Source of the DNA: Pecten maximus
Lineage: Eukaryota
Assembly: GCF_902652985.1 (NCBI RefSeq)
Contig: NC_047024.1
Location: 35,588,001 to 35,652,000 of the forward strand
DNA: 64,000 nucleotides
Reading direction: 5' to 3'
Made by a program: the position numbers and the translations under genes. Each line of letters begins with the position of its first letter. Position 1 is the first letter of the stretch. Of this stretch, positions 10,486 to 59,236 are shown piece after piece. The notes beneath the pieces were generated by a model. That model made no database searches, was not told the origin of the DNA, and saw nothing but the letters and a program-made list of their open reading frames with translations.

Positions 10486-11097
10486 AGAAATAATTAACGA
10501 TGACTCGTGTATTGTTGCAGGATATACAACGAGGACGAGGATATCTTGCAATTAAATTAATAACGAAGGCCGCAGGCCTGAGTTATTAATTAAAATTGCA
10601 AAATATTCTGCAACAACACACGAGTCAAAGTTGATTATTTCTATTCTACCATGTACTGTTTAGTTCTGAGATCGACCTCTTTCTAATATAAAAACAGCAA
10701 AGAAACCCCGGGAAAACCTTGTAATTTATTTCTTGAGTATTGCATTATTTGTTGATGAAATATACATTTCTTTACAGGCACTACAGTACTACGATCAAGA
10801 GCATATATAATATGGCGTTGAATATGAAAATTAAAAAAAAAGGGATAAAGAAAAGAAAAAAAAGGGGGCCTCCGTAGGATTCGAACTCGCGTCGTGATAA
10901 AAATTTAATGAAAGACTAACCCATTAGCCCACTCAGCTATTGTAACCTTATAAGAAATAAGTGAATATTAGATATATAAAGTTGTAACAGCGGTGACTCA
11001 CGAGCGTGTATTATTGGCACGAGCGTGTATTATTGGAAAATAATACATGGTTTTAAACCAATCAAAACTGCCGTTGCAAAGCAAACATGGTAGAATA
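10486..11097. mobile_element. Non-autonomous terminal-hairpin element E2 (A..A'-B..B')
   Basis: Hairpin 10486-10642 with a ggccGCAggcc loop, then attctaccatgt (10643) and its inverse acatggtagaat (11085-11096). Confidence 0.75.
10856..10947 (-). promoter_or_regulatory. tRNA-like Pol III type-2 promoter unit (A box, B box, oligo-T) inside E2
   Basis: Minus strand reads TAGCTGAGTGG (A box), ~40 nt, GAGTTCGAATCC (B box), then a T-run. No convincing acceptor stem. Confidence 0.6.
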
Positions 11098-11568
11098 TCC
11101 AGTATGTTTACGATGATGTCGACCACAAAAATGTCATGTGGCTAAATTCTGTTTTATTGTTTTATTTATTTCCAGTATTCATTTTTATTTTTTATTTATC
11201 TATTTCTTTTTCTTGTCAATAACCGTTGCCTATCGGAGAAATAATGGGAAGTCCCTGACATTCAAATTAATTTGGGCATATGAACAACAAAGGAAAAGGG
11301 AAATTGAAATAAAATAACCACATGATCTAAACCGTCTTTCTTACGGTTTAAACGGCCGAAAGCGTCTATCAAACGTTCATGAATCTCCATTATTGACCTT
11401 GGTCCTACGAGGTTTGTTTAGACACAATCCGATATATTTGCCCTACTTTCTACATCTGATGACCTTCCATGAATGCCTTCATGATATTTCAGCGCTTTAA
11501 ACCTCGTGGGACAATAAGTTCAGTTGATGAATATGAAAATTAAAAAAAAAGGGGGGGATAAAGAAAAG

Positions 11569-11659
11569 AAAAAAAGGGGGCCTCCGTAGGATTCGAACTC
11601 GCGTCGTGATAAAAATTTAATGAAAGACTAACCCATTAGCCCACTCAGCTATTGTAACC
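11569..11659 (-). promoter_or_regulatory. Second copy of the tRNA-like Pol III unit
   Basis: Identical A and B boxes within the duplicated segment. Confidence 0.55.
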
Positions 11660-12620
11660 TTATAAGAAAAAAGTGAATATTAGATACATAAAGTTGTAAC
11701 AGCGGTGACTCACGAGCGTGTATTATTGGCATGAGCGTGTATTATTGGAAAATAATACATGGTTTTAAACCAATCAAAACTGCCGTTGCAAAGCAAACAT
11801 GGTAGAATATCCAGTATGTTTACGATGATGTCGACCACAAAAATGTCATGTGGCTAAATTCTGTTTTATTGTTTTATTTATTTAAGGTATTCATTTTTAT
11901 TTTTTATTTTTCTATTTCTTTTTCTTGTCAATAGCCGTTGCCTATCGGAGAAATAATGGGAAGTCCCTGACATTCAAATTAATTTGGGCATATGAACAAC
12001 AAAGGAAAAAGGAAATTGAAATAAAATAACCACATGATCTAAACCGTCTTTCCTACGGTTTAAACGGCCGAAAGCGTCTATCAAACGTTCATGAATCTCC
12101 ATTATTGACCTTGGTCCTACGAGGTTTGTTTAGACACAATCCGATATATTTGCCCTACTTTCTACATCTGATGACCTTCCATGAATGCCTTCATGATATT
12201 TCAGCGCTTTAAACCTCGTGGGACAATAAGTTCAGTTGATTTACAAGTGTGTATTCAGTTTTGATTCACAACGCGTCTAACGACCGAGCCGGCTTTCATC
12301 TCAGTCACCAAACTGAAGTAGGCAGTGACATGTTCAGACTCTAGTGACAGACGTGGAACGTCCTCTCAACAGCAGATCATGCTGCTAATGGCTTTGATGC
12401 CGTAATCCAAGTTGGACTTAATTGATATATGGGCTTGTCATTAATGTGTGACTGACAAGTCGATTGGCTCCAAATATCTACTTTACAGTGTAAATGGCCA
12501 TCGGAAAGTATACATTCACGCCAAATGGTAGAACCAATATTCATTTGATAACGATAACGACGCTAGCATACTAATTTGCTTCTTGACGCATAAATCACAC
12601 AGGCGCCTACCCCACCCCCG

Positions 12621-12702
12621 CATCCATCCATCCATCCATCCATCCATCCATACATACATACATACATACATACATACATACATACATACATACATACATA
12701 CA
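12621..12702. repeat. Compound microsatellite (CATC)n(CATA)n
   Basis: Direct reading. Confidence 0.98.
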
Positions 12703-13339
12703 TGTAATGTACGCGTGTGGTATGTATGTATTATCTTCTTAATAAAGAGCAAAACAAATCTCATATTCAAGATTCTATAGCGTTATAGGTCGCCACTTAC
12801 ATATTGTAATTCCCATTTTTCCTAACATTCATTTAGCATATTTTCTTAAATAAACCAGAAATTTCTGAAAAATTTGAATGATCATCTATTATTCAATTTC
12901 ATTTTAATAACTGCACTTTTACATTTTTGAAAGGTAAGTTGTCTAGTGCAGCTTTCGCTTATATTGTATGTTAATTGGTTCTTATGTATTTGCAATGTAA
13001 ATTATTTTCTATGAAAATTCAGTAGGATTTGATTTTTGTTATAGATTGTATATATTGTAGATGGATTATTATTTTTTTTTTTTTACCTCATTCTCATTTT
13101 TCCACACCTTATTACATTGATGTTTTTTTCTAAGTTTTTGTCTTGACTTATTTATACAGATTCCTAGAATGAATTTTTAACTGAGCCCAGTGGAAAATTT
13201 GGAAAATTTTAATTTTAAATCATGGTAAAGATATGCTAAATAATCTGTTGGTGGTCACTGTTTCTCTACAAGTCTACTTATAGCTTGCTCTTGATGTCAA
13301 CAACCTCTCTCAAATATTTTCTAACTTTTGTTTTGGTCT

Positions 13340-56615: not shown

Positions 56616-57879
56616 CAAGTTGTCATTTATTCAAGGAGCAACGTTGATTCAGGATTTTACCAAATTATATAAGATATCTTATACATGTATACTTTATAAG
56701 ATATCTTGTATATTAAATGAGATATCTTATATACTTTTCTTTATAAGATATCTTATATAATATATAAGATATCTCATAAAAGATATAAGATATCTTATAA
56801 AGAAAATTAAATAAGATATATTATAAACTTTAGAAGATATCTTATATACTTTATAAGATATCTTATATGCTTTATAAGATATCTTGTATATTAAATGAGA
56901 TATCTTATATACTTTTCTTTATAAGATATCTTATGTAATATATAAGATATCTCATAAAAGATTTAAGATATCTTATAAAGAAAATTAAATAAGATATCTT
57001 ATAAACTTTAGACGATATCTTATATACTTTATAAGATATCGTATATACTTTATAAGATATCTTATATATTATATAAGCTATCTTATAAAGGAAATTATCT
57101 AAGATATCTTATAAAATTCGATTATAAGATATCTTATTAAGAACGAGATTTCAATTTGAGATAATGAACTCTCCCCCACTCGATGAAAGAGCCGAGATGA
57201 AGCTGAAACTACATAAAATGGTTTAAAACAAATTCATAATTGCTATATATTCATGTTTGCTCGAACACGACATCTGCACCGTGCCTAGCCGATCGTGATC
57301 CCGACAGAGGGTTGATTGTGAATGTTCCGCTTGCCTTCCAATAAAACGGAAGTTACCTTACAGAGGGAGCAGTCATTCTCGAACTTTTATGTTTTGCCGG
57401 TCTCACGAGAGTCTCGTTCTTTATAATATATCTTATAAAAACCTTTCTTTATAAGCTATCTTATATATTATATAAGATATCATATCTTTTATCAGATATC
57501 TTGTATACTTTATAAGATATCTCTTGAATAAAAGTTTATAAGATATCTTATAAAAGATATAGGATATCTTATATATCATGTAAGATATCTTATATATTAT
57601 ATAAGATATCTTATATAAGATATTTGATATATTATATAAGATATCTTATATATTATATGGGATATCTTATATCTTATATAAGATATCTTATATATTATAT
57701 GGGATATCTTATATCTTATATAAGATATCTTATAAACTTTAAATAAGATATCTTATAATTATATAAGATATCTCATCAACATATAAGATATCTTATAAAC
57801 ATATCAGGTATCTTGTATAATTTGGTAAAATACTGGATCAACATTGCTCCGCGAATAAATGACAACTTTGCTTGCCGTA
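56616..57879. mobile_element. MITE with long TIRs and a tataagatatcttata interior (IS3EU-like right end CCGTA)
   Basis: aagttgtcatttattc..ttttaccaaattata is inverted to tataatttggtaaaa..gaataaatgacaactttgcttgccgta. Confidence 0.88.
57139..57421. mobile_element. Nested small TIR element
   Basis: aagaacgaga / tctcgttctt ends bound a GC-richer island inside the AT-rich MITE. Confidence 0.65.
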
Positions 57880-58193
57880 CAGCAAAATGTGCCTGATATA
57901 TTCCGATCACGCTATATACATTTGTATTACCATTTTGTCAGATACTAATCTGCCTGCTGATTAACTATGCATCAACCTACCTACCTCGACTATCGGTTGT
58001 TTTGGAGTCCCCTGTGTAATTTCAGCCGGGAATCAATATGAATGTTTGGTAACGTTAGTTCAAGTGTAGTTGTTTTTCTTGTCACTGTGACTGTGTAGTA
58101 TGGCTTATATACATTGGGAACCGCAATGGTTTATGAAGGAATCAGTGCTGACAAGTAAGTATGAGTGTTGTAATTATATAAGGGAGCATTCTC

Positions 58194-58483
58194 TATGACA
58201 AGCCAAGTTGTTATACATGCGAGGAGTAATGTTGATCCAGTATTTTACCAAATTATATGATATATAAGATATCTTATATAATTATGAGATTTCTTATATG
58301 TTTATTATATTTCTTATATGTTTATGATATATCTCGTATGTTAATTATATATCATATGTTTATACGATAATATTTTTAAAGAATATGATATGTCTAATAT
58401 GTTATATAGGATATCATATATTAATCTGGTAAAATACTGCATCAACATTGCTCCGTGATTAATTGACAACTTTGCTTTGCATA
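58194..58483. mobile_element. Shorter, older copy of the 56616-57879 MITE family
   Basis: Shares aatgttgatccagtattttaccaaattata and its inverse. Confidence 0.8.
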
Positions 58484-58907
58484 CTTGACACTTGTTCTCA
58501 TTTGTATTAAGGTCTACTAATATATTAATTGTTTACTTCTCTCGTTGATTTTCGTATTTCAATATTTTCTTTTTGCGTTTGACATTAACTATGCCAAAAT
58601 GGATATTTACCCATTGCAACGATTCGGAAAGACAGAAATCACCTCCAATGTAGCTGTATTGAAATGTACTTGGTGACAGGCGTCATTTTTCACCAAATCT
58701 CCATAGAAAATTATTAAACCTTTCGAATTGAATATGAATTTCTCTGTTATATGATATGACTACAAAATTAGCGACATATTATTTATTATTAAATATATAT
58801 ATATACAATAAGGTTTTAAACGATAATTGATACATTATTTTACATATTTCACTTTCATTTTATATGTTTAAACAAAACACACTAAAATAAGCTAAAGTTA
58901 AAATAAT

Positions 58908-59236
58908 TAAGGATCAACTTGAATACATTTTTAATGTTATGAAGGTTTAATACATAAAAAAGTGTATGCTATAAATAAACCGCGAATCGGTTTTATAATG
59001 AGAGTGTGTGTGAAATAACTCCATAACATAAAATATATTCAAGTTAATCCTTATAATTTAATCTATACCCCGCAAAAAATAACTTTATTGGTGGACTTTT
59101 TTCCGTACCAAATCACTACTCTGCTCCATCTTCCAATCAAAAGCGACGTTATGAACGGCGACGTCATATTTTACAATATGGACTGGTAACATAAATTTCT
59201 AAGCCAATGAAAATGCTTGTTACAAACAAGATTATA
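58908..59236. mobile_element. Non-autonomous terminal-hairpin element E5
   Basis: Hairpin taaggatcaacttgaata..tattcaagttaatcctta (58908-59053) with apex aaccgcGAAtcggtt and a subterminal ccaat motif; the B/B' repeat is weak. Confidence 0.55.

Follow-up and report, generated by a model that had tools for sequence, protein, structure and literature searches.

Strand-polarised terminal hairpins of CryptonA-type elements in Pecten maximus and a candidate folded single-strand recombination substrate

Hairpin-bearing elements in the window

The DNA analysed here, called the window, is a stretch of 64,000 nucleotides from Pecten maximus (assembly GCF_902652985.1, contig NC_047024.1, positions 35,588,001 to 35,652,000 of the forward strand). 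It is AT-rich with abundant tandem arrays, and we studied in it the multi-copy elements that begin with a long hairpin and that we relate to CryptonA transposons. The elements of the window are denoted E1 to E7, loci fetched from the genome carry L numbers and hairpin families f numbers; positions without a locus name are those of the window. A sequence-only reading had located four hairpin tips of the form cGNAg. All four were confirmed, in E2 (10568-10578, plus strand), E3 (18654-18662, plus strand), E4 (47188-47198, minus strand) and E5 (58980-58990, plus strand), each as the tip of a 155-180 nt imperfect hairpin that forms the left end of a multi-copy element. A hairpin scan of the window recovered E2, E3 and E4 and missed the decayed E5.

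The hairpin consists of a left arm (A) and a right arm (A'). Directly past the right arm lie 10-14 nt (B') whose sequence is inverted and complementary to the element's far 3' end (B), at a B'-B distance of 0.3-3 kb, an arrangement that holds in most families with full copies. Because B' adjoins the right arm, A' and B' together are complementary to the joined ends, B plus A. E2 (613 bp, 10483..11095, plus strand) has its hairpin at 10483-10643, B' at 10644-10653 and B at 11086-11095; its apex is a GCA loop closed by c-g (10572..10574), with a tandem GA mismatch (CGAA/TGAG) four pairs lower. E3 (18576..19218, plus strand, end approximate) starts with a hairpin at 18576-18742 followed by B' at 18743-18754, and its 3' end has decayed; the apex loop is GAA (18657..18659) and the family carries CGAG/CGAG tandem GA blocks. 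On the minus strand, E4 (425 bp, 46853..47277) has its hairpin at 47277-47111, B' at 47110-47098, B at 46865-46853 and a GCA apex (47192..47194) whose closing G is A in the window copy. E5 is an old copy (58907..59240, plus strand, end approximate) with a hairpin at 58907-59052, B' at 59053-59064 and a GAA apex (58984..58986) whose closing G is T in the window copy. E1 is a non-autonomous element (3753..4092) with the hairpin first on the minus strand, the internal complement of its 3' end at 3920-3930 and the 3' end segment at 3753-3763, both on that strand; a 98.5% copy lies in L187. E1 had been set aside as not fitting the pattern. It does fit, its apex reading c(GCTA)g (4010-4013, minus strand) with the hairpin first, which is the GNNA type of mini-hairpin.

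Apex loops of the families

Searches of the 918 Mb assembly gave 1489 candidates for E2, 2155 for E3, 417 for E4 and 688 for E5; for each family 40 candidates were scored and the best 30 copies aligned. The aligned families have sharp ends, are ~345-660 bp long and start with the hairpin at the left end. Taken over these best 30 copies, each family has a perfect cGNAg as its majority apex, the loop being GCA in E2 and E4 and GAA in E3 and E5. The single closing mismatches reported earlier for E4 and E5 are present in the window copies and, as the majority apices are perfect, represent copy-level mutations. The hairpin-first strand was set independently by the element body and the 3' end, and on that strand all of E2-E5 read GNA, in agreement with the sequence-only reading. 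The aligned copies were picked for resembling those of the window, with a bias towards the same polarity.

E3 and E4 are ~70% identical and were therefore counted as one lineage. By a hand calculation from base composition, the chance that a given apex, on a given strand, has both C-G closing and a GNA loop is ~0.007, and for three lineages jointly ~4e-7; this is a post hoc figure, and the protein-anchored tally described below is the better test.

In DNA, GNA triloops that contain a sheared G-A pair and are closed by C-G have unusual stability (PMC3201870; here and below, the cited papers are referred to for the portions of their text available to us). The four-base form of the mini-hairpin is GCGNNAGC; the RNA counterparts are far less stable, and mini-hairpins mark priming sites on single-stranded DNA (ssDNA) and resist the single-stranded-DNA-binding protein (SSB) (PMC13037366). 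Other families have cGNNAg loops or short pyrimidine loops (TT, TTT, TCT). The apices on which the earlier claim of convergence rested are thus real, but convergence on cGNAg was too narrow a description, since cGNNAg and pyrimidine loops are also used.

E4 is an internal deletion of a CryptonA element

The first 240 and last 200 bases of E4 match both ends of an element of 2.8-3.2 kb, with an end identity of 94-99% in L151-L153 and further copies in L154 (97% and 81%) and L155. The open reading frame (ORF) of this partner is a DUF3504 tyrosine recombinase (YR), scoring 54 bits against a cut-off of 29.7, and also gives QRICH1-like and Phage_integrase matches; the gene is interrupted in both copies read (L152, L154). 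Since its ends flank a DUF3504 element, E4 is a non-autonomous CryptonA, formed by internal deletion. All coding-strand ORFs of at least 80 aa in the partner are pieces of the YR frame and no reverse transcriptase (RT) ORF was seen among them; four opposite-strand ORFs (80-106 aa) in L152 lay outside the domain scan.

A DUF3504 search was scored for 150 matches, of which 100 were fetched, together with 40 of 100 Phage_integrase matches, and hairpins at these loci were found with Watson-Crick-only scoring. A hairpin lies 0.4-2.1 kb from the YR domain in 62 of the 100 DUF3504-anchored loci and in 12 of the 40 Phage_integrase-anchored ones. In a midpoint-rooted FastTree tree of non-redundant, stop-free stretches, the hairpin-bearing YR stretches are spread across the DUF3504 clade. 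Other YR clades were set aside as partners: 28 of the 40 Phage_integrase loci have no such hairpin at 0.4-2.1 kb, and those of the remaining 12 that were placed in the tree fall in or beside the DUF3504 clade; the one exception, L282, has a hairpin directed away from its gene.

For E1, E2, E3 and E5 we infer a CryptonA-type identity from shared anatomy. L246 has a hairpin of the E2 type at 1.8 kb from a YR gene but not the matching 3' end; the E3 hairpin is 70% like that of E4; and the terminal motifs of E1 and E5 are common to YR-linked families, those of E1 in L250, L277 and L281. Elements of the E1-E5 type have no terminal inverted repeats (TIRs) and no target-site duplication (TSD), as in CryptonA, and the 4-6 bp terminal direct repeats of CryptonF/S were not found, flank overlap being at or below the level of shuffled pairs. 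A DIRS retrotransposon was ruled out by the ~3 kb partner, which holds YR pieces only and has neither RT/RNase H nor long inverted terminal repeats. A Helentron or HINE was ruled out by the YR partner and by a target of the form ATAN^X-N6-T rather than TT, and a miniature inverted-repeat transposable element or other TIR transposon by the internal rather than terminal position of the inverted pair and the lack of a TSD.

Alignment of 13 YR ORFs showed a complete R-K-H-R-H-Y set in L156, L163, L167 and L170, and replacement of the first catalytic H by Q or T in several others. The AlphaFold model of the L157 YR, confident over approximately residues 115-445, has a Cre-like fold, with matches to Cre (Z 18.3, rmsd 11.6, 301 aligned), QRICH1 (Z 17.0, rmsd 3.3, 160 aligned) and the integron integrase IntI (Z 14.4, rmsd 10.2, 271 aligned). 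The modelled fold leaves the substrate type of the YR undecided, and that IntI is not singled out is evidence neither way.

Strand polarity of loops and mismatches

To the polarity tally 80 hairpins contributed, some unrelated palindromes among them, all read towards the YR gene; five further hairpins pointing away from the gene were left out. The loop is G..A in 31 (GCA, GAA, GGA, GTA, GCTA, GTTA, GTCA), every one of them closed by C (31/31), and the complement T..C in 3; the remaining loops are short pyrimidine (19), short purine (3) and other or deleted (24), the pyrimidine class having been defined after the data were seen. The stems were classed as tandem GA>TC in 52 of the 80 hairpins, as TC>GA in 3 and as neither in 25.

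Family-conserved 2x2 mismatches are GA/AG in 28 of 34 tallies and TC/CT in none, some positions perhaps having been counted twice; overlapping loci that could not be oriented by flank sharing (L062, L077, and L153 with L152) were dropped from this tally. Conserved tandem GA is present in 15 of 21 families and stands in a pyrimidine-GA-purine context in 27 of 28 cases, the context in which GA pairs become sheared and cross-stacked (PMC10085684). The most frequent block is CGAG/CGAG, the closing pairs vary (CGAA/TGAG, TGAG/CGAA), and the distance below the tip ranges from 4 to 72 pairs. Conserved single mismatches are TT (16), GT (13), AG (6), GG (5), CT (5) and AC (4), with no AA or CC; many of the TT mismatches adjoin the terminal site.

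Relative to the hairpin-first strand, the YR gene runs antisense in 59 of the 80 cases and sense in 21, and its occurrence in either sense argues against an mRNA structure. Because the loops and the tandem GA mismatches fall on the same strand, strand-specific selection on a folded DNA strand is well supported. This part of the earlier claim stands; the ssDNA step attached to it would belong to the mechanism considered below.

The polarity bias is strong but leaky, and flipped forms can multiply, as the apex counts of f32, f20 and E4 indicate. With a perfect palindrome (L280) as the f32 query, the 25 closest loci comprised 14 with GAA/GAAA, 4 with TTC and 7 whose apex was lost. Among 20 body-anchored E4 copies, 14 had an intact GCA, 2 were flipped, 1 was mutated and 3 were partly deleted. 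A body-only search with f20 gave, in its first 20 new matches, 4 intact GTA apices, 1 half, 1 mutated, 1 TAC and 13 lost. Arm-to-arm correction, flips, and apex duplications and deletions are frequent (examples in L169, L211, L204, L214, L184 and L316-L340); the family majorities nonetheless retain the mismatches.

Joints and target sites

Real head-to-tail joints occur in three unrelated groups, E3/E4 (L034, L037, L032), f2 (L185, L238, L242) and f20 (L292/L294, L293, L309), and are 2 nt longer than the internal complement. Comparison of the sequences of joint and complement in these groups points to a recombination site that would form on folded ssDNA by intrastrand pairing and contain unpaired bases.

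Removal of the element restores a gap-free empty site in at least 20 of 50 rows, the rest being self-matches or gapped. No TSD was found in the flanks, whose mean overlap was 0.67-1.47 nt compared with 0.67-1.18 in shuffled pairs. The target consensus is ATAN^X-N6-T, with the T at +8 in 25 of 26 targets of E2, 24 of 27 of E3, 46 of 51 of E4 and 38 of 43 of f20. In most groups the matching T stands at +9 in the joint and at +7 in the complement (f2 is without it), so that the folded site would have an asymmetric spacer of 8/6 nt against 7 bp in the target. Position X is T in E2 (26/26) and A in E3, E4, f2, f3 and f32, which fits joint and complement alike; the two can be told apart at X in f20 and E5 only. 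In f20 the first target base is the complement-like A in 33 cases and the junction-like T in 10 (n=43, p=6e-4).

Elements also insert into one another across families, frequently at a shared position of the E3 3' region or exactly where another family's 3' end lies (L032, L036, L037, L048, L057, L185, L242). In other hairpins the right arm complements the whole joint, and the element's 3' end comes after it in inverted form (L034:1315-2661, L185:1731-1880, L242:5687-5847, L238:6044-6210); these look like fold-back products or insertions at the end of another copy.

Proposed mechanism and alternative explanations

The folded single strand of E1-E5-type elements is, in our estimate, rather likely to be the recombination substrate of their own tyrosine recombinase. 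The hairpin-first strand would be exposed, for example at a replication fork, and the stable tip would nucleate folding, A pairing with A' and B with B', so that the two ends would come to be stacked against a single, uninterrupted partner strand. From these ends the recombinase would make a single-stranded circle, the junction being a double-stranded site with a 2-nt bulge; only the junction strand would be exchanged with a chromosomal target, and replication would resolve the product, in the manner of CTX phage and attC. Through the GA mismatches the hairpin-first strand would remain stable while the chromosomal duplex is an imperfect palindrome. For animal CryptonA at large, we see about an even chance of a 'peel-and-paste' mode, in which a strand would fold into a self-aligned site, be excised as a single-stranded circle and integrate by one exchange. 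In that mode a structural code (a GNA, GNNA or T-rich tip, sheared GA blocks and the 2-nt bulge) would take the place of terminal repeats.

Several observations weigh against the folded-substrate reading. Nearly a quarter of the tallied hairpins (the 19 of 80 above) have short pyrimidine loops, conserved GA tandems are absent in 6 of 21 families, and the single-copy hairpin L277 (f30) has TTC on its apparent hairpin-first strand. Flips with intact ends occur in f2 (L169 and L211, among 14 copies shown), as do mosaic hairpins (L204, L214). When f20 was queried with a flipped copy (L166), ~20 of the 25 closest loci were flipped too, and from their number the flipped form has multiplied; as an exception to polarity, f20 shrank with the body-anchored sample. 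The families are related by descent and not independent, and as all of them lie in one CryptonA clade, common ancestry, maintained by selection, is just as probable as convergence. Some joints are perhaps nested insertions at the end of another element and not circles. The first target base does not separate joint from complement in E5 (A 6, T 7; n=14), and the first-base sets of E1/f9, f31/f12 and f18 were left out, their short anchors having picked up chance and internal matches. An autonomous partner with both ends was found for none of E1, E2, E3 and E5, and the YR model is nearer to Cre than to the integron integrase. Finally, folding in vivo, the single-stranded circle, the exchange of a single strand and resolution by replication are all steps that we infer.

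The fold might instead serve circularisation and second-strand priming, with the recombinase integrating an ordinary double-stranded circle; the internal complement would then be a splint, like the DIRS internal complementary region (ICR), and the mini-hairpin a signal for primase or single-strand initiation, of the kind known from phage G4 and ssiA. Both ends of DIRS have their complement in an essential ICR (PMC7192593), mini-hairpins at ssDNA priming sites are SSB-resistant (PMC13037366), and the full-joint right arms with an inverted 3' end (L034, L185, L242) resemble fold-back synthesis. We nonetheless regard this account as unlikely, because the DIRS ICR is exact, whereas the 2-nt asymmetry is kept here across unrelated families, because the f20 first target base tracks the internal complement and not the junction, and because the TSD or 4-6 bp direct repeat that two-strand exchange would tend to leave is absent. 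A cruciform extruded from double-stranded DNA, one of its two arms being recognised as in the N4 promoters, would need no free strand. Recombination of attC via cruciform extrusion (PMC3458562) offers a precedent, and the frequent apex deletions and duplications, arm-to-arm corrections and flips fit cruciform processing. Extrusion pairs A with A' but alone leaves B apart from B', 0.3-3 kb off, and the TC mismatches of the other strand would presumably oppose it, so that we judge this route improbable.

The hairpins might also be an inherited protein-binding sequence of double-stranded DNA, in which the GA mismatches would be a side effect of direct CGAG repeats lying within an inverted repeat, and the internal complement would serve as a second recombination site in inverted orientation, like that of the 2-micron plasmid. 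That CGAG/CGAG is the commonest block speaks for it, and an inverted second site would account for the flips and the variable gene orientation. The closing pairs vary while the GA pair is kept, the block is found anywhere from 4 to 72 pairs below the tip, and the loop sequences vary yet all 31 G..A loops retain their C closing, which makes this origin very unlikely. A structure acting in RNA, as a transcript hairpin, is the least probable of the alternatives. Tandem GA and gCUUGc loops occur in RNA too, and the excess of GT over AC among the conserved single mismatches (13 vs 4) is what GU wobble would give. The polarity follows the end of the element, not the gene (59 antisense, 21 sense), and the E4 partner has no RT ORF among the frames described above. 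The RNA counterparts of mini-hairpins are, moreover, far weaker (PMC13037366). Even when inheritance of a protein site and action in RNA are taken together, we give them little credence.

Relation to known systems

With CryptonA the elements share a single YR gene, abundant non-autonomous deletion derivatives and the lack of TIRs and TSD (PMC3212892; for Glomhopper, PMC13465315). Animal Cryptons have been described as having no terminal repeats, direct or inverted, and their circular DNA model was drawn by prokaryotic analogy (PMC3212892); here, in contrast, one end is a 155-180 nt strand-polarised hairpin followed by an internal sequence that complements the joined ends. Fungal and oomycete Cryptons have direct repeats of 4-6 bp, which are absent here. 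The words 'hairpin' and 'palindrom' do not occur in the text of PMC3212892, nor in the available portions of PMC13465315 and PMC5753468. In the literature consulted we found no description of Crypton hairpins, GNA tips or ssDNA substrates, though Repbase, supplements or subscription papers may cover these palindromes.

CTX phage with XerCD resembles the present elements in its inverted half-sites with unequal spacers and in a site that arises only upon folding into a ~150 nt hairpin (PMC3089051). Single strand exchange is proven for CTX phage (PMC3089051, PMC3442271) and only proposed here; CTX is a phage that uses host enzymes and a fixed dif site, whereas the enzyme here is element-encoded, its targets follow a degenerate pattern and one of the half-sites does not exist until the ends have been joined. 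IntI acts strand-specifically on attC sites, which likewise are folded, have an unpaired spacer and extrahelical bases, and conserve structure over sequence (PMC3458562); they are self-contained hairpins of 57-141 bp between cassettes, and the YR fold here is nearer to Cre. DIRS-1 is a YR element with an internal sequence complementary to both termini and an ssDNA intermediate, but it carries long inverted terminal repeats, an RT and, near its 3' end, an exact ICR of 88 bp (PMC7192593), whereas here RT is lacking and the arm of a terminal hairpin provides the complement, 2 nt short. Helentrons, HINE and DINE-1 (PMC4067079) and Replitrons (PMC10288648) are alike in asymmetric inverted repeats, hairpins, lack of TSD and transposition through ssDNA. 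Both groups use HUH/Rep enzymes, Helentrons with a short 3' stem-loop and TT targets (PMC4067079), Replitrons with terminal direct repeats (PMC10288648), while the E4 partner encodes a YR. The tips have the same loops and C-G closing as the mini-hairpins d(GCGNAGC) and d(GCGNNAGC), and the GTTA loop found here is that of phages St-1 and alpha3; the natural roles given for mini-hairpins, in phage and plasmid priming and in N4 promoters, include no eukaryotic transposon in the available text (PMC13037366, PMC3201870).

The feature is real and belongs to a known transposon group; its end structure is one for which we found no description, and the mechanism is testable but a proposal. Crypton mobility is an open question, with analogy to prokaryotic circles as its standing model (PMC3212892). 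The anatomy sets both ends to the base and gives a target pattern and a named substrate, which makes the mechanism testable. If it holds, single-strand recombination by tyrosine recombinases would reach from bacteria to animals and CTX/attC recombination would have a counterpart in a eukaryotic DNA transposon. The hairpin rule would allow gene-less palindromic repeats to be classed, and an integrase that leaves no TSD and has a loose target might make a useful tool. Added here are the direct link of E4 to a YR, the protein-anchored polarity tally over many families, the pyrimidine-loop class, the empty-site and first-base tests and the measured flip rates.

Further features

A second, deleted copy of E1 lies at 4561..4798 (minus strand); judged by eye, one arm is mostly gone and the apex is possibly flipped. 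E6, absent from the earlier list, is a partial hairpin end of the cTTg type (55408..55510, plus strand) with its apex near 55481-55483. E7 (32920..33085) is a decayed hairpin of the cTTg/CGAG type with its apex at 32990-32991; its TT loop and GA pairs sit on the minus strand, and it was left out of the counts. Several families have a second short palindrome 30-80 nt inside the 3' end (46895-46925 in E4, 19135-19165 in E3, L169:5950-5973 in f2), a candidate enzyme-binding site. The body of E2 contains, after a poly-A run, a stretch (10866-10895) that we take to resemble a reversed tRNA T-arm/B-box, and a duplicate fragment lies downstream at 11575-11600.

Among the fetched loci, the f10 hairpin family (L167 vs L182, L231) has the sense orientation relative to one YR gene and the antisense orientation relative to others, perhaps through nesting or inversion. 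A weaker, different hairpin lies 300-600 bp from YR genes outside the DUF3504 clade (L260:4050-4172, L284, L251, L270), without the GNA/GA code. The window has an assembly gap of 500 N within 1-2000. Its palindromic tandem arrays, with many nested inverted repeats, are found at 47944-50706 (units of 39/63 bp), 54872-55105 (~21 bp) and 56688-57819 (AT-rich, ~21 bp).

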